Shown here: positions 2,872-24,733 of the stretch, in pieces
Layout: every line of letters starts with the position of its first letter
Position numbering within the stretch: the first letter of the stretch is position 1
UHGV virus genome: UHGV-0371537
DNA length: 64,000 nt
Strand: one strand, 5' to 3'
DNA from: a virus
Program-made: the position numbers and the translations under genes
Notes under the pieces: generated by a model
Database searches by the model: none
Told to the model about the DNA's origin: nothing
The model's input: only the letters and a program-made list of their open reading frames with translations

Positions 2872-4650
2872 ATGGCCACACAAACAGTTCCCTCACTCGA
2901 TGTCAGAACATACGAGTTCCTTCTTAAGAAGCGAATGAAAGCAGACCCGACCTTCAAAGACTATGATTTTGAAGGTTCCGGCCTCAGTGCCATCATTCGC
3001 CTCTTGGCCTCGGATGCCAATGCCGTCGGGTTCATGCAGAACATGCTGAATGGCGAAAGCCATCTTCACTCTGCCCAACAGCGTTCCAACGTCGGTCTTG
3101 CGGCGGGGTTCCTTTCATACACCCCTGACAACTACAAGGCTGCGTTCCTGTATGCCAACGTAACAGTCACACCGTATGATCCAACAACTGCCCCTGAAAC
3201 GATCGTAATCGATCGACGTGCGATGTTTATTGGTGCAAAGGATGGCAAGTCATACAACTTCACTGTCGAAGCCCCGGCGAGTGCTACTTTGGTGGATGGG
3301 TCTTACAAGTTTGAAAACCTGAAACTGATCCAGGGCAACTGGCTGTACAAGTCATATGATGTCGAAGGAAGTGCGATCTCGTCTTATGTGATCCCTTCTT
3401 CAACTGTAGACATCAATCATATGGTGGTACAGGTGGCGGCTTCGGATACAGCCGATGAGACCAGCACGTACTCTCGTTATGTCAGCCCATTTGACCTGAG
3501 TCAATATGCTCAGCTCTACTTTGTGGAACTTGGCCTGGATGGGATGTACACCTTCGAATTTGGAGATGGGTACATCTGCAAACGTGTGGAAGATGGGAAC
3601 GTCATATATCTACAGTACCTGGAAACGTCTGGCGAAGATGGCAACGACATCACCTCTTTGTCTTCAGCTTCTTCCATCGGTGGATTCAACCTCGTGGATG
3701 TTGAACTGGTGTCCGAGCGTTCTTCCGGTGGTGCGCCACCAGAAAGTATCGAAGACACGAAACGCCTTGCTCCTCTGGCCTACCAGGCCGAGGGCGCGGC
3801 TGTAGCTGAGATGGATTACGCTGTTCTAACAGAACGCTTGTTCTCCAATGTGTCACGCGCCAAAGCATATGGCGGAGATACGCTCTCTCCTCCCGACTCC
3901 GGCTATGTCTACATTGCTGTCATCCCTACTACTGGTGAGTCACTTTCGGACGCGGAGAAGGCAGATATCGTGGCGACGTTAGATAAGTACAACGTTGGCA
4001 CCATCACACCAAAGATCGTCAACGCCGACATCACGTATATCGACGTGACAACAACGGTGTTCTGGGATTCAACATCTACAGCATACAACGAAGAGCAATT
4101 GAAAACCGTTGTTGTAAACGGGGTGCAAAACTGGGGCGCATCTAATCTTGAAGGGTTCGAAGAGTTGTTCGACAAAGAGCAACTGCAAGAAGCCATCACC
4201 AAGATGGATCGTTCTATCGCTTCCAACATCGCTTCGGTGAAATACAAACGTCACTTTAAACCAGATTACGGCGTTCTGGATAGTTTCACTTTCGATTTCG
4301 ACAGATCTATCGCTTCTGGTTCGGTGCGCATCAGTGGGTTTAAACCTCTTCCGGCTGAAGTTGATTTCACGTACTACATACGAGACGTCAATGGTGTGTT
4401 GAATATGTACAAGGTGAGCACCGCCGACACGACGAAAGAATATCTTGTACAGGCTGTGGGTACTGTAGACTATGTGAATGGTGTTGTGGAATTACAGCAG
4501 ATCACAGTTTCGAATTACAACGCCGAAGGAGTAACGATTGTGGTGTCTCCTGATGGACTGAACCAGAACCTACAGGCTGTGCAGAACCAGGTGCTCCGCA
4601 TCGGTGCAGTAACTGTCCTGCCGGAGGTGCGCTATGTCCAAAGATCTTAA
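2872..4650 (+). CDS. gp6: baseplate wedge protein, T4 gp6-like
   Basis: N-terminal DYDFEGSGLSAIIRLLA matches the T4 gp6 DYDFEGS region; track ORF begins at GTG 2857, ATG 2872 has GGAG SD 6 nt upstream; CTAAATA late-promoter motif at 2825. Confidence 0.75.
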   Translation: MATQTVPSLDVRTYEFLLKKRMKADPTFKDYDFEGSGLSAIIRLLASDANAVGFMQNMLNGESHLHSAQQRSNVGLAAGFLSYTPDNYKAAFLYANVTVTPYDPTTAPETIVIDRRAMFIGAKDGKSYNFTVEAPASATLVDGSYKFENLKLIQGNWLYKSYDVEGSAISSYVIPSSTVDINHMVVQVAASDTADETSTYSRYVSPFDLSQYAQLYFVELGLDGMYTFEFGDGYICKRVEDGNVIYLQYLETSGEDGNDITSLSSASSIGGFNLVDVELVSERSSGGAPPESIEDTKRLAPLAYQAEGAAVAEMDYAVLTERLFSNVSRAKAYGGDTLSPPDSGYVYIAVIPTTGESLSDAEKADIVATLDKYNVGTITPKIVNADITYIDVTTTVFWDSTSTAYNEEQLKTVVVNGVQNWGASNLEGFEELFDKEQLQEAITKMDRSIASNIASVKYKRHFKPDYGVLDSFTFDFDRSIASGSVRISGFKPLPAEVDFTYYIRDVNGVLNMYKVSTADTTKEYLVQAVGTVDYVNGVVELQQITVSNYNAEGVTIVVSPDGLNQNLQAVQNQVLRIGAVTVLPEVRYVQRS

Positions 4651-5488
4651 TAACGGCCACAACGGGGTAAAGTATGAGACTCCGTTGTTCTACCAGAACG
4701 AGTTCCCGGCGTTCATTGAGTTCATGGACACTTTCTTCAATTGGTTGTACCGCCAGCAGGGGTTCACTGAAGAAGAGATCTTGTCTTATCTTGCGGAGCC
4801 AGATGCTTGGGTGAACCCGAACACCGAAGATTCACCCCTTGAGCAGCTGATTGATATCAAGAAACGAAAGACTCCGGGAACCGAAGCCAAGGATTTCTTG
4901 GAAGACAAGTTCCTGACCCGCACGTTTGAAAACATGATGGCGCTTGATGCAGAAGAACTCTTGGACGCAGATGGTCGACCGCTCATATCTATGGAAGATA
5001 AGAATGAACGTATCGATGATTGGTATAGCGACTTCGGTTTCCAGAGAACGGTTGACAAGAACTTCCTTGAATTCGGACACTTTGTACCAGTGGGTTCAGA
5101 TTCACTTGTGACATCTGATGGAGACACGTTTTCTGTTTTCGTGGCCGGGGTTCGACGCCGAACCCTGGACCATGTTCGTTGGTTGAAGTTGCTGAAACAT
5201 ATCTACCGTATTCGTGGGACGAAGAAAGCTATCGAACTGTTCTTCTGGATTTACTTTGGATGTCCTGTGTCTGTATACTATCCAAAGGAAGAGATCGGCG
5301 GCCTGGATGATAACTTTGAATGTGATGGCGCAACCGGGATGCGTGATGACTATTACTATGATGAATTCACTTATGTGATAAGAGTTCCTGGCGACGTATC
5401 TGATTTTGAAGGCGTATTTGAACGCGTCTTCCGTCAGCATTTCCATCCTGCTGGGTTTACCGTATTCCTGGAAAGTTCAAGGAGTTAA
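4634..5488 (+). CDS. hypothetical virion/baseplate-associated protein (284 aa)
   Basis: ORF overlapping the gp6-like stop with GGAGGTG SD; position inside the baseplate module. Confidence 0.5.
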   Translation: MSKDLNNGHNGVKYETPLFYQNEFPAFIEFMDTFFNWLYRQQGFTEEEILSYLAEPDAWVNPNTEDSPLEQLIDIKKRKTPGTEAKDFLEDKFLTRTFENMMALDAEELLDADGRPLISMEDKNERIDDWYSDFGFQRTVDKNFLEFGHFVPVGSDSLVTSDGDTFSVFVAGVRRRTLDHVRWLKLLKHIYRIRGTKKAIELFFWIYFGCPVSVYYPKEEIGGLDDNFECDGATGMRDDYYYDEFTYVIRVPGDVSDFEGVFERVFRQHFHPAGFTVFLESSRS

Positions 5489-5490
5489 AA

Positions 5491-6702
5491 ATGGCCGATT
5501 TCCTGAGTCAATATACAGGTCAGCAGATTGATGCAATACTTGGTTCTGTTGACGACAAAGTAAGTAAGAATGATGTTATCAACGATTTCGCCGTTGATGA
5601 CCCGTTGTTTCCTCCGTCAGCTCATTTGACATATGAGCTGAAGCGTTCTGTGGATAATATCTACGACATACTGGAAAACAAAGTGATCCGCACCGACGGT
5701 GGTGAACAAACTATCAACGGGCGGAAGACTTTTGCCGCAGAAATCCGAGCCAATGCTGGTGTCAGTATCCCTACGGGGAAGAAACTTACCATCACAGATG
5801 AGCCAGTTGATTCCACTGATGGCGTCAATCTGTCTATGCTGCGCAAGCACGGCGTGAGTGAAGACACTGCCGGGGTTAACTCTGGTCTGAAAATCGAGTT
5901 GTTACCTGGTGGCTACAACAAACTCACTTTCGATGGCACAAATCTGGCCACTTACTCTGGTACTGGTGTGCCAACTACCATGTTACTGGTGAGTGGAACC
6001 GACACTGTCAAGTACGACACATCTGCGTTTGTGACTTCTATCTTCAATGATACGCGTTTCAACGCTTATCTGAAGGTTGTTGATTATGATGCCGATATGT
6101 TGGATATCCAGTCTCAGTTCAACACTGTCAACACCACTCTGGCTGCGAAGGTCAACACGTCGACTTACAACTCCAAGATGTCTAGCCTGGACACCAGTAT
6201 ACTGGATCTGACGAACAACAAAGTGAACGTCAGTACGTATAACACGAAGATGGCGGCGTTGGACAGTTCCATCAGTGGCATTCAGAGTGATATCGGCACG
6301 ATCAATACCACGTTGTCTGGAAAGGTCAACACATCGACCTACAACGCCAAAATGACAAGCCTGGACGCCGACATTGCTGCCCGTGTGAAGATCGGGAAGA
6401 CCAACCCAAGCGGTATCACTGTCTCTGCTTCTGGGAACTCTGCGTTGCCCGACTTCGATTTGGTGAACCTTTGCCAGGTGTTGATCAGTGCACAATGGGG
6501 TACAGGCAACGTCGTGGATACGTACCGCGTGACGATCACCCGTGACGGGACTATCAAGTCTGAGCTGTTGGTACAGAAGTCCACTTCCGGTACGGTGACA
6601 TTCGCGGGTTCTGTAGTGTCTTCAAAACTTCGTTTGACGATAACAAATGCGAACACGACGACTGCTTGCTCCGTTGACTACAATCTAGTCGCTTCTTTCT
6701 AA
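5491..6702 (+). CDS. fibre-like structural protein with three tandem ~30-aa repeats
   Basis: Repeats of the form NT.NTTL..KVNTSTYN.KM..LD..I between aa ~204-298 (nt ~6100-6390); Ser/Thr/Asn-rich; sits in the tail-fibre module. Confidence 0.6.
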   Translation: MADFLSQYTGQQIDAILGSVDDKVSKNDVINDFAVDDPLFPPSAHLTYELKRSVDNIYDILENKVIRTDGGEQTINGRKTFAAEIRANAGVSIPTGKKLTITDEPVDSTDGVNLSMLRKHGVSEDTAGVNSGLKIELLPGGYNKLTFDGTNLATYSGTGVPTTMLLVSGTDTVKYDTSAFVTSIFNDTRFNAYLKVVDYDADMLDIQSQFNTVNTTLAAKVNTSTYNSKMSSLDTSILDLTNNKVNVSTYNTKMAALDSSISGIQSDIGTINTTLSGKVNTSTYNAKMTSLDADIAARVKIGKTNPSGITVSASGNSALPDFDLVNLCQVLISAQWGTGNVVDTYRVTITRDGTIKSELLVQKSTSGTVTFAGSVVSSKLRLTITNANTTTACSVDYNLVASF

Positions 6703-6710
6703 AGTGAAAA

Positions 6711-6751
6711 CTAAATACCCCTAGATGAAACGAACACATTTAGGGGTATTT
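6711..6751 (+). promoter_or_regulatory. late-promoter-like CTAAATA plus 11-bp hairpin covering the SD region
   Basis: CTAAATACCCCTA (6711-6723) pairs with TAGGGGTATTT (6741-6751); ATG 6755 follows 3 nt later. Confidence 0.5.
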
Positions 6752-6754
6752 GAA

Positions 6755-9736
6755 ATGGCTAATAAACCAACACAGCCTGTTTTCCCTCTCGGTCTGGCGG
6801 CTGAAGAGCAGTCTACTTTGGCTGGTGTCCTCAACACGGGTACGATTGAGCATGGACCAGATGCTGTCCTGACTTTACCAGAGGGTAATGCCAGCGCAGG
6901 ACTCCCGTCTTCCGTTCGCTACAATGCCGACTCCGACGAATTTGAGGGCTTCTATGAAAATGGTGGATGGTTGCCGCTGGGTGGCGGTGGTATCCGCTGG
7001 GAAGTCCTTCCGCATGCCTCTACGGCAACGCTCACTGAAGGGCGAGGCTATCTCATTAATAATACCACAGGGGCATCTACAGTGGTTCTCCCTTCCCCTA
7101 CGCGTATTGGGGATTCCGTTACTATTTGTGATGCTTATGGGAAATTTGCCACTTACCCATTGACCGTGTCTCCTTCTGGAAATAATTTGTATGGCTCCAC
7201 TGAAGACATGGCTATAACAACTGATAACGTATCAGCAACGTTCACTTGGTCTGGACCTGAACAAGGTTGGATTATTACATCCGGCGTCGGTCTTGGCCAA
7301 GGTCGTGTCTACAGTCGTGAAATCTTTACAAAAATTTTGGCGTCTGAAACAAGTTCTGTCGCTCTCAATACTCCACCAACAATTGTGGACGTGTATGCTG
7401 ACGGAAAACGTCTTGCGGAATCCAAATATTCACTAGATGGGAATGTAATCACTTTCAGTCCTTCTTTGCCAGCCAACACAGAACTTCAGGTGATTGAATA
7501 TACTCCTATTCAATTGGGTAATGTCAGTGGTTCTGGTTCTTCTACGATTACCTGGGTCTATAATGGGGGTTCAGCGATTGGTGGTGAAACCGAAATCACG
7601 TTGGACGTCGTTGTTGATGATGTTCCGGCCATTGATATAAACGGAAGTCGCCAGTATAAAAATCTGGGATTCACATTCGATCCATTAACCAGTAAAATCA
7701 CTCTTGCGCAAGAACTGGAACCAGAGGATGAAGTTGTTGTAATTATCAATGGAACACCAAACATCTATAATCAAATTGATTATACTTTGCGGGAAGTTGC
7801 TCGAGCAACCAATGTTAAAGATACAGAGGTCGTTTATTTTAGTGTTGGTGCTGCGTTAAGTGGGTATAAAGTTATTTATGACAAGGAGACGCAAAGGGCT
7901 TATCCCTTGCCTGCTGATATTGTCCCTGGTACTACTGCTGTCAGTCTTAGTTCTTCCGCTATACTTGTGCATTCTGCTGGTAGTGTTGATCTGGGCGCAT
8001 TAGCTGTATCTCGTGAAGAATATGTTACATTGTCTGGGACATTTGATTCTGGTGCTGTCATCAATGTTAAAAATGAATTACTCACCCATACTGATGGAAA
8101 GTATCGTTGGGATGGTACACTTCCTAAAACCGTTGCTCCTGGCTCAACTCTTATGACAACAGGCGGCGTTGGTGTTGGCGCATGGATTAGTGTTGGTGAT
8201 GCTTCATTGAAGTCAGAATTGGCTAAACCTACAGGAGCAGGTTTTTCAGGTTTTGATAAGTCAATTGATTACGAAACTGGTACTGTTGGCAATGCGCTTA
8301 AGAAAATTATAAATGTCAACCCGGATATGTATCCATCATTACAGGATGCGATTGATGCTGCGGCAGCTTTAACAGGTTTAGAACATGCACCAAGTAGTGC
8401 TGCTAACCATCCTGACTGGCTACAACCTAACACTGTAAGCAAAGTTATCAGGCTGAATGGGAAGAAATATCCTATCAGTACGACACTACACATTCACGGA
8501 GATGTTAGCATTGATGCTGGTTTCGGTGGGGTGTACCTCACCGATGACTTCGTTGCAGACTCCTCTGGCTATGCTGTTAAATGCGATAAAGGGACGGGTA
8601 ATCAATACGCTGGGCATATCAGCAACTTATTAATTGATGCCCGTGCAAAAACTGTTAATGGGTTTAAGATATCCGATGGCTATGCTAACAAGTTAGAAGG
8701 CATTTACGTAGCCAACGTTGATGGTCATGGCATCCATATTGCTGGCGGTATGGGTGTGCACCTATTGAAGTTTTATGCTGTTGGTGTATTAAAACCAACT
8801 AATCCGCTCAGCACAGCCCACATTGTTGAAGGTAGCGATCATCAGGTTAGCATGGGTGAAGGTCGTTATTTCCGATTTGGTACCTGGGTTCGTGGTGGTG
8901 GTAATAACAGAATTGGTAAGGTGCACAACTGGGGCATGTATGACGATACAGTCACCGACCAGAACTCAAGGATGAAATGCTGCTTTGTTGTACAGAACTC
9001 AATAAACAATTCCTTCAATCAATGTTTTGCAGATTCTCCATCAAAATGGGACTACACGAAAGCTAATTTAGATCCTGTAGATGGTTATATTAACGGCGGG
9101 ATTGGTTTTTTTATTGATGGTGGAGCCACCGGTAATACGTTCTCTCAATGCCAGACGTTTGTGAATATGAATGCGTTTAATGACGCAGGGTTATCTGCAT
9201 ATGCGGCATCACTAATGCCATTCGCCGTTGGCAGTATCAATTGCTCATTCATTGAGTGTGAAAACTCAAACTCACCAGCATGGGTGGCAAGACTGATAAC
9301 TCATATTTACTCTGTGGATCAGGCATTTACTAACATACTCGCAGCTAAGAATTTTGTTGGTATAGAGTATGATATGGTTTGCAATGGTACAATTTTCAGG
9401 AAAAATGTTGGAGTTCCTGTATTGGTAAGAAATTCAAAGTTCGAGACGCCAACAGCAAGTTATGCGCCTAACTTTTCAGACGCATCTTACATCGCAGCTA
9501 CAGTTACAGGAGATGTAACAATAACACCAGCAGTATTAACAAATACACTAATTGGTTATGTTGAGGTTCTTTTGGCTGTCTATTCAACAACATCTAAAAC
9601 AATAACATTTGGTGCAAATGTTATATTAGCAAGTAGTACCCCATCTTTGACAGCAGCTGGAACACAAGTTTTTAGGTTGTCAACAACTGATGGAGGAACG
9701 ACTTGGTTCTGTAAGTTCGAGAGTGCTTACCCGTAA
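6755..9736 (+). CDS. tailspike protein, long form with N-terminal extension (TSP4-like)
   Basis: Internal anchor domain (aa ~350-510) paralogous to the N-termini of the 9839 and 15080 genes (VSREEYVTL, VKNELLTHT, KYRWDG); track start ATG 6725 lies in a hairpin loop, ATG 6755 follows the CTAAATA motif and hairpin. Confidence 0.8.
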   Translation: MANKPTQPVFPLGLAAEEQSTLAGVLNTGTIEHGPDAVLTLPEGNASAGLPSSVRYNADSDEFEGFYENGGWLPLGGGGIRWEVLPHASTATLTEGRGYLINNTTGASTVVLPSPTRIGDSVTICDAYGKFATYPLTVSPSGNNLYGSTEDMAITTDNVSATFTWSGPEQGWIITSGVGLGQGRVYSREIFTKILASETSSVALNTPPTIVDVYADGKRLAESKYSLDGNVITFSPSLPANTELQVIEYTPIQLGNVSGSGSSTITWVYNGGSAIGGETEITLDVVVDDVPAIDINGSRQYKNLGFTFDPLTSKITLAQELEPEDEVVVIINGTPNIYNQIDYTLREVARATNVKDTEVVYFSVGAALSGYKVIYDKETQRAYPLPADIVPGTTAVSLSSSAILVHSAGSVDLGALAVSREEYVTLSGTFDSGAVINVKNELLTHTDGKYRWDGTLPKTVAPGSTLMTTGGVGVGAWISVGDASLKSELAKPTGAGFSGFDKSIDYETGTVGNALKKIINVNPDMYPSLQDAIDAAAALTGLEHAPSSAANHPDWLQPNTVSKVIRLNGKKYPISTTLHIHGDVSIDAGFGGVYLTDDFVADSSGYAVKCDKGTGNQYAGHISNLLIDARAKTVNGFKISDGYANKLEGIYVANVDGHGIHIAGGMGVHLLKFYAVGVLKPTNPLSTAHIVEGSDHQVSMGEGRYFRFGTWVRGGGNNRIGKVHNWGMYDDTVTDQNSRMKCCFVVQNSINNSFNQCFADSPSKWDYTKANLDPVDGYINGGIGFFIDGGATGNTFSQCQTFVNMNAFNDAGLSAYAASLMPFAVGSINCSFIECENSNSPAWVARLITHIYSVDQAFTNILAAKNFVGIEYDMVCNGTIFRKNVGVPVLVRNSKFETPTASYAPNFSDASYIAATVTGDVTITPAVLTNTLIGYVEVLLAVYSTTSKTITFGANVILASSTPSLTAAGTQVFRLSTTDGGTTWFCKFESAYP

Positions 9737-9740
9737 AACT

Positions 9741-9766
9741 AACCCCCTCTTCGGCAGGGTTCTTGT
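9741..9766 (+). terminator. degenerate copy of the AACCCCGCTTCGGCGGGGTT terminator
   Basis: AACCCCCTCTTCGGCAGGGTT immediately after the tailspike stop at 9736. Confidence 0.35.
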
Positions 9767-9798
9767 TATACCTTTGTTCATAAATTTATTAGTTCAGC

Positions 9799-9834
9799 CT
9801 AAATACCCCATATTGGTCATCCTTTATGGGGTAT
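9799..9834 (+). promoter_or_regulatory. late-promoter-like CTAAATA plus 9-bp hairpin covering the SD region
   Basis: ATACCCCAT (9803-9811) pairs with ATGGGGTAT (9826-9834); ATG 9839. Confidence 0.5.
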
Positions 9835-9838
9835 TATC

Positions 9839-11788
9839 ATGATTTCTCAATTCAATCAACCACGCGGCTCCACTTCCATAGAAGTTAACAAACAATCTAT
9901 CGCTCGAAATTTCGGTGTCAAAGAAGACGAAGTCGTTTATTTCACTGCTGGTATTGATCTCAGTGGATTTAAAGTAATTTATAATGAGTCTACCCAACGG
10001 GCTTATTCTCTTCCTTCAGGTATTGTTTCAGGAACGACTGCTGTTAGTCTTAGTGCTAACGCTGTTCTTATGCACTCAGCTGGTTCTATAGACCTCGGAG
10101 AATTAGCCGTATCTCGTGAAGAATACGTTACATTGCCTGGGTCATTCACCTCGGGTGCTACGCTTAATGTTAAAAATGAATTGCTTACCCATACAACAGG
10201 CAAGTATCGCTGGGACGGGGAATTTCCTAAAACCGTTTCTGCAGGTTCTACCCCTGAATCTGCTGGTGGTGTTGGTCCTAGTGCGTGGGTTAGTGTTGGT
10301 GTTGCTTCTTTAAGAGCAGACCTGGAAAAACCAACAGGGGCAGGATTGATTGGATTTGGCTGTTCTCCATATATAAATAGAAATATTGGAGATGTTCTCC
10401 AGGATATACCAACGAACAAATATTTTGGTGCAAAGTGTGATGGCGTAACTGATGATACTGTAGCTAACCAAACTGCACTTGATTGGTCTGCTGACAATAA
10501 AAGAGATGTTATTTTTGTTGGAAAAAGCTGCATAACAAGCAGACTTGTACACAATTCAGGCTCCAGGGTAACACATCTTGGAGAGATCAAACCTCGTGAT
10601 TTTTCTGATGATGTTGTTATTGAGGTAAAGGACGATGCGTGGCGTGATCCTTACAATGATGGAATAACAGCAATCGATACTGGCGATAGAGTTCATATTG
10701 ATGGTCTATGTATTGCCCCTGACTCTGTAATAGATGCTGTTGGTATTCTTGGCACTGATGGAGTGGATCCGATCATATCAAGATTAAGAACATTCAACAT
10801 GAGAAGGGGAGGAATTAAGATTGTTAAGGGGTATGGATGGAACATATCAAACATTTCAATCATTGCACCTTTTGATCAAAATAACTCTCATGATTATGCA
10901 GGAATTAGGCATGAAACGTCAGATTCATTTTATTCTAGCGTTATAGTTTCAGGATATACTACTGGACTTGATATGCCTGGAAATGCTAATCAAGTATCAA
11001 AGGCCCACTGCTGGGGAATGTCATTACCAGATAGAACCACTCGTAATATGTTATTCGGCCTTAAAATGAGCGGTAGTGGTAATAACGTAGTGCAATTCTA
11101 TTCTGATTCTCCTAAAAAAATTGATAAAACACAAGCTGCAAGCATTACAAATGGTGGGATTGGCTATGTAATTTCTGGTTTTAACAACACATTTTTATCA
11201 CCTAGGAACCTATCTCATCAGGATTGTGGCTTGAAATATGGTAAGGTTTTTCTGATATCTGGTTCTGAGAATACCTTTATTAGCCCCTTAATAGGTGATT
11301 ATGACTACATTGAAGATGATGGATTTTTCACATTTACAGATTCGGCAAGCCCGCTAAACAACTATGTTTATGGTGGCAACATGCAATCTACATATTTGTA
11401 CCCAATTGCAAGTGGTAGCTATAAACCAACTGTAAACATCCCATGCACATACAGCTCTCAAATATATAACCATAATATCATTCAGAAAAATGTTATGGGA
11501 AGAGTTGTTATTACATGCAATATTACAAGTAATTCATCCGACGATCCATTCTATATACAACTGCCACCTTATCTATCAGCTGTATCTGGGATGGCAAGTG
11601 GATCAATAATTAACAACCTTACATCGTCAGTAAGAGCTGATAGCAACCTTTTTGCAGTCGAACCTTATGTTTCAAATGGTAAAATCTACTTCCGTAGATT
11701 ATTTAGATCTGGAGCTGCTGATGATATAAAGCAAAATATGCTTAACACAGGTAATGCTTTCTTTGATATATCAATAAATGCAAGATAA
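9839..11788 (+). CDS. tailspike protein, short form (TSP3-like)
   Basis: N-terminal anchor domain shared with the other three tailspike genes; 649 aa. Confidence 0.8.
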   Translation: MISQFNQPRGSTSIEVNKQSIARNFGVKEDEVVYFTAGIDLSGFKVIYNESTQRAYSLPSGIVSGTTAVSLSANAVLMHSAGSIDLGELAVSREEYVTLPGSFTSGATLNVKNELLTHTTGKYRWDGEFPKTVSAGSTPESAGGVGPSAWVSVGVASLRADLEKPTGAGLIGFGCSPYINRNIGDVLQDIPTNKYFGAKCDGVTDDTVANQTALDWSADNKRDVIFVGKSCITSRLVHNSGSRVTHLGEIKPRDFSDDVVIEVKDDAWRDPYNDGITAIDTGDRVHIDGLCIAPDSVIDAVGILGTDGVDPIISRLRTFNMRRGGIKIVKGYGWNISNISIIAPFDQNNSHDYAGIRHETSDSFYSSVIVSGYTTGLDMPGNANQVSKAHCWGMSLPDRTTRNMLFGLKMSGSGNNVVQFYSDSPKKIDKTQAASITNGGIGYVISGFNNTFLSPRNLSHQDCGLKYGKVFLISGSENTFISPLIGDYDYIEDDGFFTFTDSASPLNNYVYGGNMQSTYLYPIASGSYKPTVNIPCTYSSQIYNHNIIQKNVMGRVVITCNITSNSSDDPFYIQLPPYLSAVSGMASGSIINNLTSSVRADSNLFAVEPYVSNGKIYFRRLFRSGAADDIKQNMLNTGNAFFDISINAR

Positions 11789-11791
11789 ATA

Positions 11792-11822
11792 AGTAGAGCA
11801 GCAACATGATTGCTGCTCTACT
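11792..11822 (+). terminator. perfect 12-bp hairpin after the tailspike stop
   Basis: AGTAGAGCAGCA pairs with TGCTGCTCTACT around a 7-nt loop; weak T-tract. Confidence 0.4.
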
Positions 11823-11834
11823 TTCTCATACAAC

Positions 11835-11978
11835 CTAATTGAAGTTAGTGGGTATATTACAGGAGGTAAAATATTCTTTAGAAGGTTATTCAGAAGCGGC
11901 TCTCCTGTTGATGTTCAGATAACAGATCTGATAACAGGTTATGCATCAATAGACTTGAGCTTTACTTGCCAGCTATAA
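11835..11978 (+). pseudogene. vestigial C-terminal fragment of a tailspike gene
   Basis: Translates to EVSGYITGGKIFFRRLFRSGSPVDVQITDLITGYASIDLSFTCQL*, homologous to the last ~45 aa of the 9839-11788 tailspike (core GKI(F/Y)FRRLFRSG 11 of 12 identical) but divergent at DNA level; no start codon. Confidence 0.6.
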
Positions 11979-11983
11979 ACAAA

Positions 11984-12010
11984 AACCCCGCTTCGGCGGG
12001 GTTAGTTTTA
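11984..12010 (+). terminator. rho-independent terminator (AACCCCGC-TTCG-GCGGGGTT)
   Basis: 8-bp GC-rich stem with TTCG loop followed by T-rich tail. Confidence 0.7.
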
Positions 12011-12278
12011 TCATCAGAATGGTATTGAATCACTGTTGGTAATAGTAGGCTCATTGCCTCTTGGTTGGTTTGGATGCTGTTCAGTATAACCGGTTCCAAC
12101 CAAACCAATGAGGCAGTGGGTAAGGGGGGTTTTTGTTGTACCCCAAACAATTCATTAGGTAGACTGTTTTAGTCAATTACGACTTAACTAACCTGAGAAA
12201 ATCCCTATGGGAAATGAACCAGATAACGTAACTCTAGCCAGACTCGAAGAGAGACTGAGAAACATTTTCGAAAACCAA

Positions 12279-12305
12279 AACCCCGCTTCGGCGGGGTTCT
12301 TATTA
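12279..12305 (+). terminator. rho-independent terminator, second exact copy
   Basis: Identical 20-mer AACCCCGCTTCGGCGGGGTT followed by CTTATTAT. Confidence 0.7.
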
Positions 12306-12336
12306 TATCCATGTTCATAAATTTTATTAGTTCAGG

Positions 12337-12373
12337 CTAAATACCCCATATTGGCAAATCCTCTATGGGGTAT
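12337..12373 (+). promoter_or_regulatory. late-promoter-like CTAAATA plus 9-bp hairpin covering the SD region
   Basis: ATACCCCAT (12341-12349) pairs with ATGGGGTAT (12365-12373); ATG 12380. Confidence 0.5.
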
Positions 12374-12379
12374 CTTCAA

Positions 12380-15022
12380 ATGACCAGAAACGTCGAGAGC
12401 ATCTTTGGAGCGGTCGTAACAGCTCCGCACCAGATTCCATACACTTACACAGCAACGGGCGGAGAGAAGTTTATCTCCCTCCCGTTCTATCCTGTTACGG
12501 GCTTCATCACCATCAATGGGGGTGTTCAGGTTCCGACAGACAATTTCGAAATCGATGGTAACACTGTCAACCTGGGTCGAGCACTTGAGACCGGGGATGT
12601 TGTGTATTGCTTGTTTGACAAGATCCTGTCTCCAGAAGATTATGAAAACGGGATCCGCATCTACAAGTTCCAGACCGTTGGTAACGAGACCTCATTCACC
12701 CCAGACTTCACGACATATGGTGTGCAGTCTCTGTATGTTGACGGGAAGTTCCAGGTGCCGGACGTCAACTACACGTATTCCCCAACCAATGGTGTCGTTA
12801 ATTTCCTGACTGGATCTCCGGCGGCTGGTGTTTGGGTTGTTGCAGAAATGTCTGTGAAGCAGCCAAACATTTCCCCTCTCTTCGATAGAACAATTCAAGA
12901 AGTGGCCAGATCTGCGAAAGTTAAGGACTCGGATGTTGTTATCGCTGTATCCGGTGCTTCACTTTCTTCCAAGAAAGTCATCTTTGATAAAACTGCGCAA
13001 AGATGGTACTCGCTGTCAACCGGGTTGACTTCCACGGTGGTCAGTTTGGTTGATGGAATCCTCACTCACTCTTCAGGTACTGTTGATTTAGGTGCGCTGG
13101 CGGTTACTCGTGGCGAATATTTCACCATGTCTGAAACCTTCACAACCGGGTTCACAATCAGAGTGAAGAATGAGATCGTCAGCGACGGAACATATCTTTA
13201 TCGCTGGGCTGGTAGTTTGCCAAAAGTTGTTTCCGCTGGAACAACCGTGGACAACACCGGGGGTGTGAGTGCGAGTGCCTGGGTGAGATCAGATCAAAGA
13301 ACCATCAGCACCGTCAAGAGACAACTACAGCAATCCTACACGATGGCAGAATTAGTGGCCAAAACTGACATACAGTTGGGCGACTCTTTCCTTTGCTCGG
13401 ACAGGGCATATGGTGTTTATGACGTCGTTTCTTCGGTGGCTTACCCACCAAATGGTTATTCGAACGTAGTCAGCACAGTGAACTCCGGTTTGGTGTTCAG
13501 ACTGCGTGTGGTTGCTAACACAATCGATTTGGAGCAAATTGGTGGTAAGCCTCTCATCTGGGGAACCCAAGAAATCGACTGTAAACAGGCGTTGCAGGAA
13601 GCTTTCTATCTCTTGCTCGACTCCGAGAGCGCGACGGTTGATCTGAAGTCCAACAAATGGTTGCTGTCATCTTATGTGTTCAACGACGTCAAACAGCGCC
13701 GGAAAATTGTTGGTAACAACGCCATTATCTATGGGATGCCAGATGACGGTGTGACCAACTATGATTACCTGGTGAGTACTGCATGGAACTACCAAGACAT
13801 CGAAGGTGTTACGTTCGACTGTCAGTGGAACCCTCGTTATGCATGCTGTCTCCGTATCACTCATGGGTACGGACGATACGATGGCCTGACGATTCGTAAA
13901 GCTCGTTGCGCCATTCAGGTTGGTAAGAGCGAGGAAAGCCGGGTCAGCCTCAGCGAATTCATGTTCACACAACTTCGCACTGAAGAATGTGCGAAAGTCG
14001 CAATTGTTCACGGGCTTTATTCTGTGCTTAACATCAGCGATTCCATCGTGGCTTGCGGCGAGGGCGCTTTCTGGAAAACATATGACTGTACCGGGTTCAC
14101 CATCTATGGTGGTCGCGTATTCCTGATGAAATGTGGGGGCAACAGCAACGTCATCAACTTAGACAACCCTTATGTCTATTGCGCAAATACCACGGTTGCA
14201 GGCGCTCCATATATCGGTTCGTTCAACGCAGTGCAGTGCGACTTTGAATTCAGGACTCGCTTCTGCATCGTGAACGATACGACGACAGTTTATCAAGATT
14301 ACAACCAAGCAGTTGTTCTTGATTCTTGCCGAATTGGTGTATTCGCCAGCCTGGACTCTCGTGCGTTGAATTTCTTTGAAAGTAACGTCGGATACCGTGG
14401 GCAGCTCCGGATTAAGAACACAGATCTTCTGTTCGACACCACCGTGTCTCTGCCGCCGATCAAAGCTGGTGGGCATACCATCGTGGATATTGATTATGAT
14501 TCGATCTACATTCCTAACTTCAGGGGTCCAAAGATGGTCAGCTTCGCTGGTTATCCTCCGGTTCTTCCAGTCGGGATTGTGTTCCAGAACAACGTTGGGG
14601 CTGACACTCCTCTTTCTGGTAACCAGTTTGTGAACTTTTCTAACCCGATCATTGGCTTGGATTCTGATTCCTCTCTGCTTAGCAGCAACTGGAACTCGTC
14701 CACCAAGAAATTCGAATTGCCTCCTGGTGGCTTGAGTGATGTTACCGTCACTGTACGTCTGACATTGAAAGATCCTGCCACCGCCCCGGTGACAGCGTTG
14801 GTGGAATACAACAACGGCACAGCGATTGGACTTGCATTCGGGACAATCCCGGTTGGATCCAAAGATCTTTTGATCACTGGCAGGATCCGGGATCTTCGAG
14901 ATACAGCCCAGATATATTGTATCACGAGTTCTACAGCGGCGTACACCCTCAGCAATACCGGGGCATATGACTCTACTATGACAATTGAGGCCAGCATTCG
15001 GCCTCCGAAGACTAAAAGTTAA
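12380..15022 (+). CDS. tailspike protein, long form (TSP2-like)
   Basis: Internal anchor domain (VTRGEYFTM, VKNEIVSDGTYLYRW); track start ATG 12365 lies in the 3-prime arm of the promoter-proximal hairpin, ATG 12380 is in frame 15 nt downstream. Confidence 0.75.
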   Translation: MTRNVESIFGAVVTAPHQIPYTYTATGGEKFISLPFYPVTGFITINGGVQVPTDNFEIDGNTVNLGRALETGDVVYCLFDKILSPEDYENGIRIYKFQTVGNETSFTPDFTTYGVQSLYVDGKFQVPDVNYTYSPTNGVVNFLTGSPAAGVWVVAEMSVKQPNISPLFDRTIQEVARSAKVKDSDVVIAVSGASLSSKKVIFDKTAQRWYSLSTGLTSTVVSLVDGILTHSSGTVDLGALAVTRGEYFTMSETFTTGFTIRVKNEIVSDGTYLYRWAGSLPKVVSAGTTVDNTGGVSASAWVRSDQRTISTVKRQLQQSYTMAELVAKTDIQLGDSFLCSDRAYGVYDVVSSVAYPPNGYSNVVSTVNSGLVFRLRVVANTIDLEQIGGKPLIWGTQEIDCKQALQEAFYLLLDSESATVDLKSNKWLLSSYVFNDVKQRRKIVGNNAIIYGMPDDGVTNYDYLVSTAWNYQDIEGVTFDCQWNPRYACCLRITHGYGRYDGLTIRKARCAIQVGKSEESRVSLSEFMFTQLRTEECAKVAIVHGLYSVLNISDSIVACGEGAFWKTYDCTGFTIYGGRVFLMKCGGNSNVINLDNPYVYCANTTVAGAPYIGSFNAVQCDFEFRTRFCIVNDTTTVYQDYNQAVVLDSCRIGVFASLDSRALNFFESNVGYRGQLRIKNTDLLFDTTVSLPPIKAGGHTIVDIDYDSIYIPNFRGPKMVSFAGYPPVLPVGIVFQNNVGADTPLSGNQFVNFSNPIIGLDSDSSLLSSNWNSSTKKFELPPGGLSDVTVTVRLTLKDPATAPVTALVEYNNGTAIGLAFGTIPVGSKDLLITGRIRDLRDTAQIYCITSSTAAYTLSNTGAYDSTMTIEASIRPPKTKS

Positions 15023-15030
15023 TTAACACA

Positions 15031-15050
15031 AGCCCTCTTCGGAGGGCTTT
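15031..15050 (+). terminator. rho-independent terminator between tailspike genes
   Basis: AGCCCTC-TTCG-GAGGGCT followed by TTTAACAT. Confidence 0.6.
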
Positions 15051-15079
15051 AACATGACTAAAACAACAGGAGATTCGTT

Positions 15080-17347
15080 ATGAATCCGCAATTTTCACAG
15101 CCGAAAGGCGCTGTCTCCAAAGAGACAAACAAAGACTCTATTGCACGCAAATTCGGTTGCAAGAAGTCTGAGGTTCTGTATGCCAAGACGGGCGCTGCCC
15201 TGACCGGTTACAAGGTGATCTATGATAAGGTCACTCAGCGCTCCTATGCTCTGCCTTCTAACCTGCCCGCTGGCGCTACCATCACCAGCTTGGCAGATGG
15301 TGTTCTTGTACATTCTGGCGGCACTGTAGACCTCGGAGCACTCGCTGTACTTCGGGAAGAGTTCGTAACTCTGGTTGAGAATTTCACTTCCGGGTTTACG
15401 ATTCGGGTCAAGAATGAAGTCGTGAGTGATGGAACGTACCTGTATCGTTGGGGTGGTTCGTTACCAAAGACCGTCAATGCTTCATCAACTGTTGCTGGGA
15501 CGGGTGGGATTTCTCCTAGTGCTTGGGTGGGCGTGGGAAACACTTCATTTTTGGGTGTTGACGGCGCAACATTAGTGGGGTATCAAAACCCTCGTTCAAC
15601 TGTGAACGAAACAATAAAATCCGCTCTTGATAAAATAAACATGAAAGTTATCTTTGCGGCGGATTGGGGTGTTAAAACTGATTCGTCTGATAACCAGGAT
15701 TCTTTGTGGTCCTTGGGTCAATATCTCTCTGCGTCTACGGAACCGCTGTACGTTGTATTTCCTAGGGGGATAAGTTTGGTCGGGTCACAGCAGTTTGCCG
15801 GGGCGTCTTCGCAAGGATATTCTTATCGACCCAACTATTTACGCCGCTCATGGGCGGACTTGTCCGCCGCTGGTTGGTTTTCCATCAGTGAGACTAATCA
15901 AAAGATCGTCTTAGACATGACCGGGTGGACTTTAAAACTGAACTCTGGATTCAAGCTCGGTTCATTTGATCCGATAACCGGAAATCCCGCACCCGATTCT
16001 CCATCAGAAGATTTAAATTTTATGGCGTCTTCTGGGTATATGATTAAGCTGTATCTCGCACCAAATGTGGAAATTTTGAATGGAACCACTGATGGTAACT
16101 TAACAGGTGCTATTTGGGGTGGTACTTATGGTCCAGCAGGGTATCAAGTCCCAGCATACAATATGTGGATTAATCAATCTGAAGGCGTTTACATATCTCG
16201 GCATACTTTTAAAAACTCTGCCGTTGACGGATTGTATCTTCAAGCCACAGGGAATAGAAATTTCCTAGACATTATCCCCAAAACCATTATCGACAACTGC
16301 ATCATAACAGACTGCGGTCGTAATTGTTATTCTCTCACTGGGGCTGCAAATGTTGAGATGAGAAACATCATTATAACCCGATCGGGTTCAAAGGCCAATG
16401 GCATTTCTACGCACGCAAGTGATCCGCAAGCAGGGGTGGACATTGAAGCGGAAGGTGGCAACCCATATAACATAACCTTCATTAATCCTAAGATCGTTGA
16501 TTGTGCTAAGAACGCTCTTATGACCGTGTCGGTGCCAGGAACTGTCAACGATGTGACTGTAGATGGAGGGGTTATTCACAGTTATTCAGAATTGGGCGCT
16601 GTGTTTAATTCAGGAAACTCTCGTAACATTAAATTCAAAAACGCCACTATAATTGGTGGGGTAATTGATTCTAAAAGCCCTGCAGAAATGGGTTTGGAAT
16701 GTTATTCATTCGAAAACTGCACGTTTGCAAACAGATATGGTAACACCTATGCAATGAATTATCTACTTTCTTTCCGAGTTAGTAAATTTGTTGGTAATAC
16801 CATTGATTTTAATATCCCCACCACTGGGGTAACAGCTCCGACCATCGTTATCAATGATCAAGATGGGGTTGCTAACGGTTACTCGTTAGAACGCTGTAAA
16901 CAGAATCGTATTATCCTGACCGGAAATGCTGCTAATATCACCTATGCCAACGGATTGGGGGGATTTAACTTTTTCCGCAATGCTGAAGTGTTTGTTGAAG
17001 CAGGGGGCATGACGGGAACAACGAAGATGTTGGTAGACACATGTTCTGCAGCGCCTGGAGGCATGCTTACAAATTCTGCTAACTTCAACTTTGGTGTCAC
17101 CATGACTAAAGATACAAGTCGGAATTTATGGTATGCTGCTAAACAATCTTATGTGGGTAGCGTACTGACAGCGGCTCCCACGGCGGCAGGCTCCCAGAAT
17201 GGAAGCCTGGATTTAGGGAGCGTGAATGGAAGATTTCGGACTGGATATTTCGATTCTGGGGTGATTGTCAGGGACGGAGTAACTGGTACGCATTATAGAG
17301 TGCGAGTTACCAGCGGTTCTCTGAATATTGTGGCGGATGAAAATTAA
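15080..17347 (+). CDS. tailspike protein, short form (TSP1-like)
   Basis: N-terminal anchor domain (VLREEFVTL, VKNEVVSDGTYLYRW); AGGAG SD; terminator upstream at 15031. Confidence 0.8.
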   Translation: MNPQFSQPKGAVSKETNKDSIARKFGCKKSEVLYAKTGAALTGYKVIYDKVTQRSYALPSNLPAGATITSLADGVLVHSGGTVDLGALAVLREEFVTLVENFTSGFTIRVKNEVVSDGTYLYRWGGSLPKTVNASSTVAGTGGISPSAWVGVGNTSFLGVDGATLVGYQNPRSTVNETIKSALDKINMKVIFAADWGVKTDSSDNQDSLWSLGQYLSASTEPLYVVFPRGISLVGSQQFAGASSQGYSYRPNYLRRSWADLSAAGWFSISETNQKIVLDMTGWTLKLNSGFKLGSFDPITGNPAPDSPSEDLNFMASSGYMIKLYLAPNVEILNGTTDGNLTGAIWGGTYGPAGYQVPAYNMWINQSEGVYISRHTFKNSAVDGLYLQATGNRNFLDIIPKTIIDNCIITDCGRNCYSLTGAANVEMRNIIITRSGSKANGISTHASDPQAGVDIEAEGGNPYNITFINPKIVDCAKNALMTVSVPGTVNDVTVDGGVIHSYSELGAVFNSGNSRNIKFKNATIIGGVIDSKSPAEMGLECYSFENCTFANRYGNTYAMNYLLSFRVSKFVGNTIDFNIPTTGVTAPTIVINDQDGVANGYSLERCKQNRIILTGNAANITYANGLGGFNFFRNAEVFVEAGGMTGTTKMLVDTCSAAPGGMLTNSANFNFGVTMTKDTSRNLWYAAKQSYVGSVLTAAPTAAGSQNGSLDLGSVNGRFRTGYFDSGVIVRDGVTGTHYRVRVTSGSLNIVADEN

Positions 17348-17487: not shown

Positions 17488-20400
17488 ATGCAAGAAATGA
17501 ATCTAAACCGTCGCCCATACTGGGATGACTGGAACCCTGAGAAGCGTTTTTCGCGCATCTTATTCCGTCCGGCTCCGATCAAAGTACAGACGCGCGAACT
17601 GAACCAGATGCAGACCATCTTCCAGGATCAGCTGGAGAAACTCGGGAATCATCTGTTCAAAGATGGCTCAATGGTTATCCCCGGTGGCCTGACGATCACC
17701 AACACAGCCGTATCGATGAAGTTCACTCTGGCTGGTGGCACTGAATTCACCGACCTTGAGAACATCGCAGAACTGTATGTTCTGGGTAAAGACAACAACG
17801 CCAAGGCGCGCGTACTGTCCCTGGAGCGCTATGTTTCGGAACCAGACACGATGTATGCCATCCTGGAGATGACAGAGAGCGGTTCATCTGACGGCTTTGG
17901 TGTCGGAGACAATCTGTACTTCAACACGTACGACGTGAACGATAACTTCATCCGTATCGGTTATGGCGTTGCTGCGACTGTCGGCGGTTCTATTGTCGCA
18001 CGTATGACCAAAGGCGTTTACTTCGTCCGTGGCATGTTCCTGGACGTTGAGCCAGCGACTCTGATCGTCGACAACGCATCCAACTCTACTTCACACCGTG
18101 TGGGGTTCAAAGTAACAGAGACCATCGTTACTGAAGTAGAAGACGAAAGTCTGTTCTCAAATGCTCAGGGGACTCCGAACTCTAAAGCCCCCGGCGCGCA
18201 CCGCTTCCGCGTGGATCTGGTGCTGTCTCGCTTCGGTTATGACGAAGAAGTGTCCGACTTCGTTGAACTGGCGAAAGTCAAAGACGGGCGCATTCAGTCC
18301 ATGGTGACCCAGTCCACTTACAACATCCTCGAAGACAGTATGGCTCAGCGCACCTATGAGACCAACGGGGATTACAACGTCTCCACTCATCAGATCGACC
18401 TGCGCGAACACCTGAAAGAGAACAACAACGGCGGCGTTTACACTCCGGGCGAAGGTGGTGATGCAAGCAAATTCGTGGCTGTCATGAAGCCGGGGATCTC
18501 CTATGTTCGTGGTCGTCGTATCGAGAACCTGGGCGAAGAACTGGTCACCATTGACAAGGCGCGGGACACCGATATCCTGAACAACAACCCTGTGGCTGTG
18601 GCGACGGGCAATTACCTCGTGTCCAAGAACTCCAAAGGGGTTCCAGTTATCTCTCGCACGATCCGTTACAAGTTCCTGAACGCCTCAAGCGCGACTCAGG
18701 CCACAGCACTGCTGATTTCAGCGGAGCGCTCTGGCGCCGAATTCCGTCTGTACATGCGTGATCTGGTTGTGACCGGAGATATGGGTACTGTCACCAAAGT
18801 TGCATACGAAGAAAGCGGTACAACAATGTTCTCTTGCGACCTGGAATCTAACCAGTTCAGCCAGAGTTCGGCGATTGACCTGATCTTCCCTCTGCCTGTG
18901 TTTGGGGTGAAGACCCTGGCACCTACTGGCACCATCGATATCAACTACACTGTCCTGCGTTCTAACAAAATCACGTTGAACGCTGCTGGTGCTGGCTCCA
19001 TCTCTGCTCCTTTGGGTTACAGCTTCAGCCCCGAATTCTCTCTGTATTCGGCGGCGAAGGCAGATGGAACTGCGGCTCAGTTCGATATCTCCTCCGGCCT
19101 GTCCCTGACGGGTACGCCAGTGGGTTCCGCTCTGCAGATCTCGCTGGGTGCTGGCTATGCCAACCAGTCCATCAACCTTCTGGCTCTGATGGTGCGCACC
19201 ACAGCAACGATCAAGACCAAGACTGCCACTGAAGTTACCGAGACTGTGACGTTCACGGCTGCGACCAGTGTGCAGCTTGGGAACCATGATGGGTACAAGC
19301 TGATCAGCGTGAAGAACGCAAGTGGTGCTGACGTCACTTCTAACTTCACTCTGGATGGTGGTCAGCGTGATGCTGCGTACTATCGTTCTAACCTGTTATC
19401 GGGCACTGGAGCCATTTCAGGGACGTTCACGGTGGTGTATCAGTATTTCGCTCACAGCTCTGGTGATTTCTTCACAGCGGATTCCTATTCCTCCATCGAT
19501 TACCCAGACATCCCGAACTATGTTTCATCCAGTTCCGGTACTGTGTATGGTCTGGCCGACAGCCTGGACTTCCGTCCTAAGATCACCGGCGGCGCTTCCG
19601 ACACCGACATGGTTCGCCCGAACACTGCTATCGTTCTGGATGCAGAGTATTATCTTCCGCGCATCGATGCTGTGTATCTGGCCGACAACGGCGTGTTCAA
19701 CGTTGCGCGTGGTGTGAGTTCCAACAACCTGGCTTCGCCTGCGATCCCAGACAACGGCATGCGTCTGTACGAATTGATGATCCCACCTTACACAGCGAAC
19801 ATCGACGACATTCAGATTCGTACCATCGACAACCGCCGTTACACGATGCGCGACATCGGTAAACTGGAGACCCGCATCTCCAACGTTGAGTATTACACCT
19901 CACTGTCTCAGCTGGAATCTTCAGCGATGACTCAGCAGGTGTTCGACCCAATTACTGGCAACCCGCGCTTCAAAAACGGCATCGCCGCTGATCCGTTCAA
20001 AGACTTCCGTCTGATTGACGACCTGTCTGCAGACTGGGTGGGTTCAATTGATACTGACAATGGACGCCTGCGCCCGTTTGTCCAGCAGAACGCGATTGAC
20101 CTGACGCCAGTCGGCTGGAACAATGTCCAGGACGGCATGGTCGTGTGTAACTACACCCGCGAGATCTCTGTACGCCAGGATTATGCGACCACGACTATCA
20201 ACGTGAACCCGTATGCAGTGTTCAACTGGGAAGGTTTCCTGAAACTCAACCCAACTACCGACTACTGGTTCGAGAACTACTATGTTGCTCCACGTGTGAT
20301 CAACGAAACGATCAACACACGCGGCGCGATCAAAGAAGGTTCTGTGTATGGCACATGGCGTACTGTGTCAGTGTCTGAACGTGTGTGGGAACCGCATGGT

Positions 20401-23959: not shown

Positions 23960-24676
23960 CTAAATACCTTCAAACGTATTTCTGATAAATTCGATAATAC
24001 GACTTTCATGTTTAAACCATTCAGTCGCACCGTCAAATCCCTTGTAGTTCATACTAAATGACATTTCATGAGCCTTTCTTTCCAGTTCTAACACGAATTG
24101 TCCATCATTTGACTTAAAAACTTCTAGAACATTGAACTCAAATGGAGTTGATCTTCTTAAAGATTTAAATCTATTATTTGGTGAATTGGACACCCCGATT
24201 TTCATACAGCCTTCTTCGCTGGTCAATATGTACAAATAACCGACTTTAAAAGGATTGTATCCGGAAGTTGCGCAGTAGGGGCACCAACTTTTACCATTCA
24301 CCAAATTACAGTATCTTGACTCCCAACGATGTCCTTCTGAACATTCCATAAGGCAAACTGTCACATTATCTTTATACTTTCCACCAATAAATTCTATGAA
24401 TTTACCACCGTTGGTTTCAGCATGGTCGGTTATTCTCTTTTTAGATTCTTGCTGGGTATTTCTCTTGTTGCCATTACATGTTGGGCACCAACTGCCTTTA
24501 TTGATCAAATTTCCATAAGATGCTGAACTCCATTGATGCCCTTCACCACACTGTAATATACATTTTGTCTGATTAGTGATAAATTTATCACCAACGAATC
24601 CCTGGAACAAACCACCTTTAGATAAGGCATATTTGTGAAGATTTTGAATAGCAGTTTCTTCTGTCAGGATTTTCAT
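23960..24676 (-). CDS. T5orf172 (GIY-YIG superfamily) domain protein with two N-terminal zinc ribbons; homing-endonuclease-like
   Basis: Two repeats C-x4-C..GH.W....C.L.N.KSWCP.C then GYLYIL....MKIGVSN....R..SLRR.....EWF, typical of T5orf172/MUG113; opposite strand between two neck genes. Confidence 0.65.
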   Translation of the reverse strand: MKILTEETAIQNLHKYALSKGGLFQGFVGDKFITNQTKCILQCGEGHQWSSASYGNLINKGSWCPTCNGNKRNTQQESKKRITDHAETNGGKFIEFIGGKYKDNVTVCLMECSEGHRWESRYCNLVNGKSWCPYCATSGYNPFKVGYLYILTSEEGCMKIGVSNSPNNRFKSLRRSTPFEFNVLEVFKSNDGQFVLELERKAHEMSFSMNYKGFDGATEWFKHESRIIEFIRNTFEGI

Positions 24677-24733
24677 ATTATCTAACCTTTAACAATATTC
24701 AACTAAATATATTTAAATCCTGAGGAATAGATC

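Follow-up and report, generated by a model that had tools for sequence, protein, structure and literature searches.

The tailspike locus considered here has its closest described counterparts in phages of the Ackermannviridae and in a group of N4-like podophages. In the Kuttervirus CBA120, four tailspike proteins (TSPs) form a branched complex whose baseplate anchor domain (AD) consists of the first ~80 residues of TSP4. The D1 domain of the TSP1 head binds XD3 of TSP4, as established by ultracentrifugation, TSP2 attaches to TSP4 via its own XD2, and TSP3, via its head, binds only the pre-formed TSP2:TSP4 complex, while the TSP4 head has no effect on partner binding (PMC8825819). The XD domains of TSP4 and of TSP2 serve as the hubs of the complex. 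The four spikes of phage AV101, TSP1-4, recognise Escherichia coli O8, O82, O153 and O159 (PMC10791037). G7C-like podophages (Gamaleyavirus, N4-like) carry two spikes, gp66 and gp63.1, and their gp63.1-type spikes begin with the same D1-D2 head. Earlier publications cover the four-spike complex and the rules of its docking, as well as module swaps among spike positions and exchange with Gamaleyavirus (PMC8825819, PMC8432352, PMC10791037, PMC10408124). Here we describe four consecutive tailspike genes, T1 to T4, in the virus genome UHGV-0371537, of which a stretch of 64,000 nucleotides was analysed (the window). The system itself is known and is textbook material for the Ackermannviridae; what is new is the combination of modules, a rare module borne by the TSP2-type spike and a cassette that fits the recombination model.

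Four spikes in the four CBA120 positions

On the + strand, four consecutive long open reading frames (ORFs) occupy positions 6725-9736, 9839-11788, 12365-15022 and 15080-17347. The starts of T1 and T3 were set at ATG 6755 and ATG 12380 by alignment to structures in the Protein Data Bank (PDB) and to the annotated AV101 genes. The resulting proteins of 993, 649, 880 and 755 aa bear out a first-pass annotation, made from the sequence alone, that had called four consecutive tailspike genes of these lengths. The spikes and their parts are as follows.

6755-9736, + strand: T1, TSP4-type spike, 993 aa (PDB 7rej/7rfo; PF18668)
~6755-7774, + strand: T1 AD-XD1-XD2-XD3 (7rej/7rfo match)
~7775-8239, + strand: T1 D1-D2 head
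8240-9736, + strand: T1 neck and distal receptor-binding module
9839-11788, + strand: T2, TSP3-type spike, 649 aa (PDB 6nw9/5w6f; PF18668)
9839 to ~10330, + strand: T2 D1-D2 head
10331-11788, + strand: T2 distal module
12380-15022, + strand: T3, TSP2-type spike, 880 aa
~12380-12841, + strand: T3 XD2-XD3 (6w4q match)
~12842-13324, + strand: T3 D1-D2 head
13325-15022, + strand: T3 distal module, predicted as a small N-terminal domain, a right-handed beta-helix and a C1q-like C-terminal jelly-roll (AlphaFold2 model)
15080-17347, + strand: T4, TSP1-type spike, 755 aa (PDB 4qnl, 9d84, 4oj5; PF18668; PF13229)
15080 to ~15559, + strand: T4 D1-D2 head
15560-17347, + strand: T4 distal module

Each spike could be assigned to one CBA120 spike through the match of its N-terminal part to solved structures. 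T1 (residues 11-348 of the longer ORF) aligns end to end with the 338 residues of CBA120 TSP4-N (7rej/7rfo, E 3e-195) and possesses the TSP4 hallmark, an N-terminal anchor domain followed by XD1, XD2 and XD3. T3 carries the N-terminal XD2 and XD3 that are the hallmark of TSP2, its residues 6-246 aligning with residues 1-243 of CBA120 TSP2 (6w4q, E 3e-93). Both shorter proteins start directly with the D1-D2 head and align from residue 1: T2 residues 1-214 match CBA120 TSP3 (6nw9/5w6f, E 8e-83) and T4 residues 1-180 match CBA120 TSP1 (4oj5), G7C gp63.1 (4qnl, the top PDB match) and relatives (9d84). Read along the + strand, the cluster therefore runs TSP4, TSP3, TSP2, TSP1. Judged by sequence, all docking domains are orthologous to those of the CBA120 spikes. 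The window thus shares with CBA120 the same four-gene set, with AD-XD1-XD2-XD3 in TSP4, XD2-XD3 in TSP2 and the D1-D2 heads, its N-terminal parts matching 7rej, 6w4q, 6nw9 and 4oj5 at E values of 1e-44 to 3e-195.

The surroundings of the cluster point the same way. As in AV101, the tsp genes (6755-17347) sit between baseplate-wedge genes and a VriC-like gene. Over a 24-kb backbone stretch, the window is 87-89% identical, at 93-97% coverage, to the Agtrevirus phages pSal-SNUABM-02, ChubbyThor and AV101; Limestonevirus phages are similarly near (88%), the genome being represented here by 64 kb. The backbone is accordingly Agtrevirus-like, unlike that of the Kuttervirus CBA120. Since none of the phage-collection records spans at least 80% of the four-gene block and the backbone is Agtrevirus-like, the window represents an Agtrevirus-like Ackermannviridae phage outside that collection. 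Structure matches, gene order, flanks and backbone all agree with the earlier call of a ViI/CBA120-type four-tailspike apparatus, and the region is, with high confidence, the branched receptor-binding complex of such a phage.

The common head and the predicted assembly

The segment of ~150 aa that had been noticed in all four proteins is real: pairwise BLASTP gives E values of 8e-34 to 3e-51 at 42-56% identity, the four-way alignment holds 47 invariant columns, and Pfam PF18668 (Tail_spike_N) scores above its cut-off in all four spikes. Its quoted motifs were all found (VSREEYVTL, VTRGEYFTM; VKNE; K/LYRW(D/A/G)G), the first also in the form VLREEFVTL, and the last reads TV..(G/S)ST, with V for the first T and T for S in T3. 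As had been described, it is N-terminal in the 649- and 755-aa proteins (PF18668 at residues 90-154 of T2 and 92-153 of T4) and internal in T1 (~341-495) and T3 (~155-315). By its sequence matches, this segment corresponds to the D1-D2 head, behind which a helical neck follows in the CBA120 spikes. It had been proposed as one common anchor domain, which holds in part: the head is a docking module in TSP1 and TSP3, but has no known docking role in TSP2 and TSP4 (PMC8825819), which retain it as a conserved spacer and a homology region. More generally, the D1-D2 head is the homology region through which distal modules swap.

Outside the head, the four proteins had been said to be unrelated. This stands for the distal domains of T3 and T4, which show no sequence similarity to the other distal parts by BLASTP or hhalign; the T3 profile gives hhalign probabilities below 1% against the distal parts of T1, T2 and T4. 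It does not stand for T1 and T3, whose BLASTP alignment begins ~65 residues before the head, inside the common XD3 domain, nor for T1 and T2, which remain similar through the neck. The distal domains of the latter two are remote homologues: their cores have a stretch in common, seen over 75 aa by BLASTP (E 3e-7) and over 129 columns by hhalign (probability 89%, E 2e-6).

By orthology with CBA120, the N-terminal anchor domain of T1 would fix this spike to the baseplate, with its XD2 and XD3 available as docking platforms. T3 would dock on T1 via its own XD2, T4 would bind XD3 of T1 via its D1-D2 head, and T2 would join the T1:T3 complex via its head. Every trimer would end in a distal module of its own, each binding, and probably also cleaving, another surface polysaccharide, so that the phage could have as many as four receptor specificities. 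The physical assembly, like the enzyme activity and the host range, is inferred here, and the multi-serotype range suggested by the first-pass annotation may reasonably be expected.

The T3 module, a rare and mobile beta-helix family

None of the four distal modules of the window matches a CBA120 module by sequence, and all four differ from those of AV101, the nearest pair being T2 and AV101 TSP3 (54% amino-acid identity). The T3 module is extremely rare. Sequence-only searches with the distal part of T3 (ORF residues ~321-885) yielded nothing in Pfam, PHROGs, NCBIfam and PDB sequences, nor in a set of 50,697 phage records and another of 5,426 complete E. coli genomes. Relatives numbered 8 among 5.8 billion proteins and 25 among 1.84 billion representative proteins. 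Distant relatives, at 19-25% identity (E 4e-25 to 4e-39 versus the profile), mostly carry a PF12708 pectate-lyase-like cap at the matching position. With a 9-sequence alignment, AlphaFold2 returned an unusable core (pLDDT 51); once the distant relatives had been added, pLDDT rose to 91.1 with a pTM of 0.84. The resulting model predicts that the distal module is a right-handed beta-helix, the depolymerase fold that the first-pass annotation had expected of the distal domains. Foldseek matches the model to the Klebsiella K2-2 tailspike (E 8e-12) and also to Fri1 gp49, Depo32 and the HK620 spike, and the nearest viral model is the spike of phage GA2A (TM 0.74, 17% identity). Three acidic residues, E211, D254 and E308 (distal-domain numbering), are invariant across the T3 family and are candidate catalytic residues.

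T3 also differs from described TSP2 proteins in its head. CBA120 TSP2 has been described with D1 only (PMC8825819), whereas T3 has a full D1-D2 head (PF18668, E 3e-15) and its match to 6w4q ends at residue 246. The XD2-XD3 part is 83% identical to TSP2 of both AV101 and L001, a related Ackermannviridae contig (Logan SRR23126187, 2740-12187) with a wholly different spike set. From D2 onwards, the affinity changes: positions 13146-15049, comprising D2 and the distal part, are 91.3% identical to the tsp1 gene of L001, whose product P0001 is T4-like up to ~residue 110 and T3-like after it. The full head of T3 is thus explained by a D2 and a distal part of the TSP1 type. A TSP1-to-TSP2 module swap, considered as a novelty in comparison with the Kuttervirus survey, was set aside as such, having already been reported for the Agtrevirus phages ChubbyThor and Gloob. 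The sharing of the head by all four spikes is not universal either, as PF18668 has no match in TSP2 of AV101 or L001. In L001, TSP3 and TSP4 also lack a match at E 0.001; therefore, D2 in all four spikes is no family constant. Beyond the Ackermannviridae, the T3 module recurs in two contigs, one T7-like and one SU10-like, and also follows a P22 head-binding domain. This very rare beta-helix family thus moves among four or more tail architectures.

How far the depolymerase assignment extends

The other three modules are less telling, and several points weigh against the view that each spike ends in a depolymerase. Among the four distal modules, the fold was modelled for T3 alone. In T4, the PF13229 Beta_helix match, at 25.9 bits, exactly equals the Pfam cut-off; the best phage relative reaches 57% identity in the distal part, and searching the PDB with the single sequence gave no match beyond head or head-binding domains. 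Nothing in Pfam, PHROG, NCBIfam or PDB sequences matches the distal part of T1, and that of T2 has only a sub-threshold PF12708 cap match. A beta-helix ending is therefore indicated by the model in T3, by an at-threshold match in T4 and by weak pectate-lyase cap signals only in T1 and T2; for T1, no such signal came out of the family searches. The GenBank record of G7C gp63.1, which holds the same position in podophages, says only 'possible hydrolase domain'. This protein is reportedly an O-antigen deacetylase (esterase) that does not cleave the glycan, and enzymatic depolymerisation is therefore not to be assumed for every module.

These points lead to the first alternative, namely that one or more distal modules, most likely T1 or T2, are binding-only or glycan-modifying, for instance deacetylating, in which case several specificities would still be provided, though by another chemistry. 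We regard it as unlikely. The T1 and T2 modules do hold the gp63.1 position in G7C-like phages, they have no family or PDB match of their own, and their family profiles searched against the PDB hit only head or head-binding domains, or nothing. However, neither matches the gp63.1 structure 4qnl beyond the head, and a pectate-lyase-like cap is detected in 6 of the 11 members of the T2 family, at E values down to 2e-4. In addition, the same modules form the bodies of P22-type prophage tailspikes with a head-binding domain in E. coli; copies of the T2 module, at 85-88% identity, lie in prophages of 4 of the 5,426 complete genomes. These contexts support a tailspike function of the T1 and T2 modules, though not a fold.

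Mosaic origin of T1 and T2

The branched complex of this Agtrevirus-like phage is built from parts of different provenance, and the spikes are mosaics. In T1, positions 6700-7850 are 97.6% identical at the DNA level to AV101 tsp4 (sliding-window comparison), 7840-8190 is itself mosaic, and 8180-9761 matches the contig L009, in its gp63.1-type gene, at 94.1% identity. In T2, 9741-10035 is 97% identical to AV101 tsp3, the leader and first ~64 codons reaching 97-100% up to a GTTAVSL motif; 10030-10320, within the head, comes from a third source, and 10331-12283 matches the contig L008 at 97.9% identity across 1,954 nt; L008 has the whole downstream flank of T2. Thus, in their leaders and N-terminal parts, T1 and T2 show 97-98% identity to AV101, in contrast to a remaining backbone at ~87%, and from the D2/neck boundary both genes are 94% and 98% identical, respectively, to gp63.1-type spike genes of N4-like podophages. 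L008 and L009 are uncultured contigs with the gene order of G7C: terminase, adaptor, gp66-like, gp63.1-like, gp63, holin, muramidase, portal. They are podoviral, with two spikes versus four here.

The left junctions of both modules fall at the end of the head (D2/neck), T2 has a further junction at the GTTAVSL motif, and the right junction of its cassette is a 20-nt terminator hairpin. These positions agree with the module-exchange model (PMC8432352; PMC10408124). The published work infers hotspots from motif conservation, whereas the window offers a single hairpin-bounded cassette with hitch-hiking podophage DNA.

The mosaic head of T2 also raises the question whether all four spikes are functional and incorporated, as a recently imported T2 may not dock. 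Two head junctions, near 10030 and 10331, enclose a middle part from the third source, and docking of CBA120 TSP3 is the most demanding step since it needs the pre-formed TSP2:TSP4 complex (PMC8825819). We nevertheless consider a non-docking T2 quite improbable, given that all four ORFs are intact, that each of the four tsp genes has a hairpin terminator of its own, and that the first ~64 codons, the docking end of D1, are those conserved with AV101 TSP3, an experimentally functional spike.

The gap between T2 and T3

A trace of exchange lies in the gap between T2 and T3 (11789-12379), which is colinear with L008 as far as 12283. The elements in and around it are the following.

9732-9838, + strand: terminator-like hairpin and leader cassette upstream of T2 (direct repeats D3, D4, D5 and D12, 82-94% identity)
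11791-11823, + strand: 15-bp-stem hairpin directly after the T2 stop, identical in L008
11831-11978, + strand: remnant 3' end of an AV101-tsp3-like allele, ~49 codons and a stop (91.9% identity to the last ~148 nt of AV101 tsp3)
11984-12003, + strand: 20-nt GC-rich terminator hairpin AACCCCGCTTCGGCGGGGTT, with a second copy at 12279-12298
12123-12279, + strand: 157-bp element common to N4-like podophages (94% to G7C, 97% to AV101)
12269-12378, + strand: second terminator and leader copy, upstream of T3 (direct repeats, 82-94% identity)

The translation of the remnant (11831-11978) fits the consensus C-terminus of the T2 module family, and the remnant is also present in the podophage contig L008. 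A duplicate of T2's own C-terminus was considered for this peptide and rejected, as its DNA is not similar to the T2 3' end but 92% identical to that of AV101 tsp3. The hairpin AACCCCGCTTCGGCGGGGTT is also found after tailspike genes in G7C and AV101; it is probably the published 20-nt 'motif three' (PMC10408124). The terminator and leader cassette (~108 nt) likewise matches AV101 upstream of tsp3 and tsp2. At its end, the leader cassette has an inverted repeat, ACCCCATA...TATGGGGT, which extends to within 10-12 nt of the start codon and has a possible role in translation control. Searches of the intergenic regions yielded no Rfam family above threshold and no more sigma-70-like promoter matches than expected by chance.

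Within the 157-bp element lie the ribosome-binding region of podophage gp63 and 24 codons from its start (ATG 12207), cut off at the second terminator copy. Elsewhere, it lies downstream of gp63.1 in G7C and, in AV101, downstream of tsp1. The gp63 gene is intact (110 aa) in G7C and L008, where the flank runs into an intact gp63-holin-lysis cassette, whereas the window copy is broken off at the terminator after codon 24. The flank of T2 therefore originated in an N4-like podophage. The gp63 fragment could also be a right-hand homology arm back into the podophage, and the T2 transfer itself may thus have gone either way.

That the four genes are instead paralogues born by duplication in situ and divergence in this phage lineage, as the title of the first-pass annotation implies, rather than a scaffold with imported modules, is scarcely credible: the homologous heads and the remote kinship of the T1 and T2 distal cores make an ancient head duplication plausible, but the distal DNA of T1 and T2, nearly identical to that of unrelated podophages behind AV101-like N-termini, the gp63 fragment in the T2 cassette, the occurrence of the T3 module on a TSP1 scaffold in a relative and in T7-like, SU10-like and P22-type contexts, and a distal GC content of 36.7% (T2) and 41.5% (T1) versus 48.6% for the window all argue against it.

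Neighbouring genes

The genes flanking the spikes, and two further ORFs of the window, are listed below.

4634-5488, + strand: baseplate wedge subunit (PF23786, E 3e-148)
5491-6702, + strand: conserved 403-aa protein of unknown function directly upstream of tsp4 (phrog_3838, E 3e-204)
17488-22326, + strand: VriC-like protein, 1612 aa (DUF4815; PF16075, E 7e-60)
23960-24676, minus strand: 238-aa ORF with T5orf172/MUG113 domains
52153-53082, + strand: 309-aa ORF with a NUMOD3 motif

The 403-aa protein has an internal 90-nt direct repeat (6106-6195 and 6280-6369) encoding NTSTYN.KM.SLD-type repeats. The AV101 gene at the position of the VriC-like gene is annotated as virulence-associated VriC. 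The 238-aa ORF runs opposite to its neighbours, and T5orf172/MUG113 domains typically mark homing-endonuclease-like genes. The stretch 23974-24698 is missing from the alignment with L001, which suggests a mobile insertion. The 309-aa ORF lies in a low-GC dip (43% versus 49% for the window), NUMOD3 being a homing-endonuclease DNA-binding motif.

Implications

The architecture of the complex is thus that expected of its family, and its interest lies in the modules. Whether the T3 module founds an uncharacterised depolymerase family with a new glycan specificity, and the T2 cassette captures an observable transfer between an N4-like podophage and an Ackermannviridae myophage, is a reading that we hold to be evenly balanced. 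If it is true, the 24 retained gp63 codons could themselves provide a homology arm, with exchange possible both ways. With its stranded fragments, the T2 cassette provides sequence-level support for the head end and the downstream terminator as recombination sites between unrelated lytic phage families. Besides, with its AV101-like scaffold and its new combination of four modules, the cluster bears on the prediction of host range and on the engineering of chimeric spikes.

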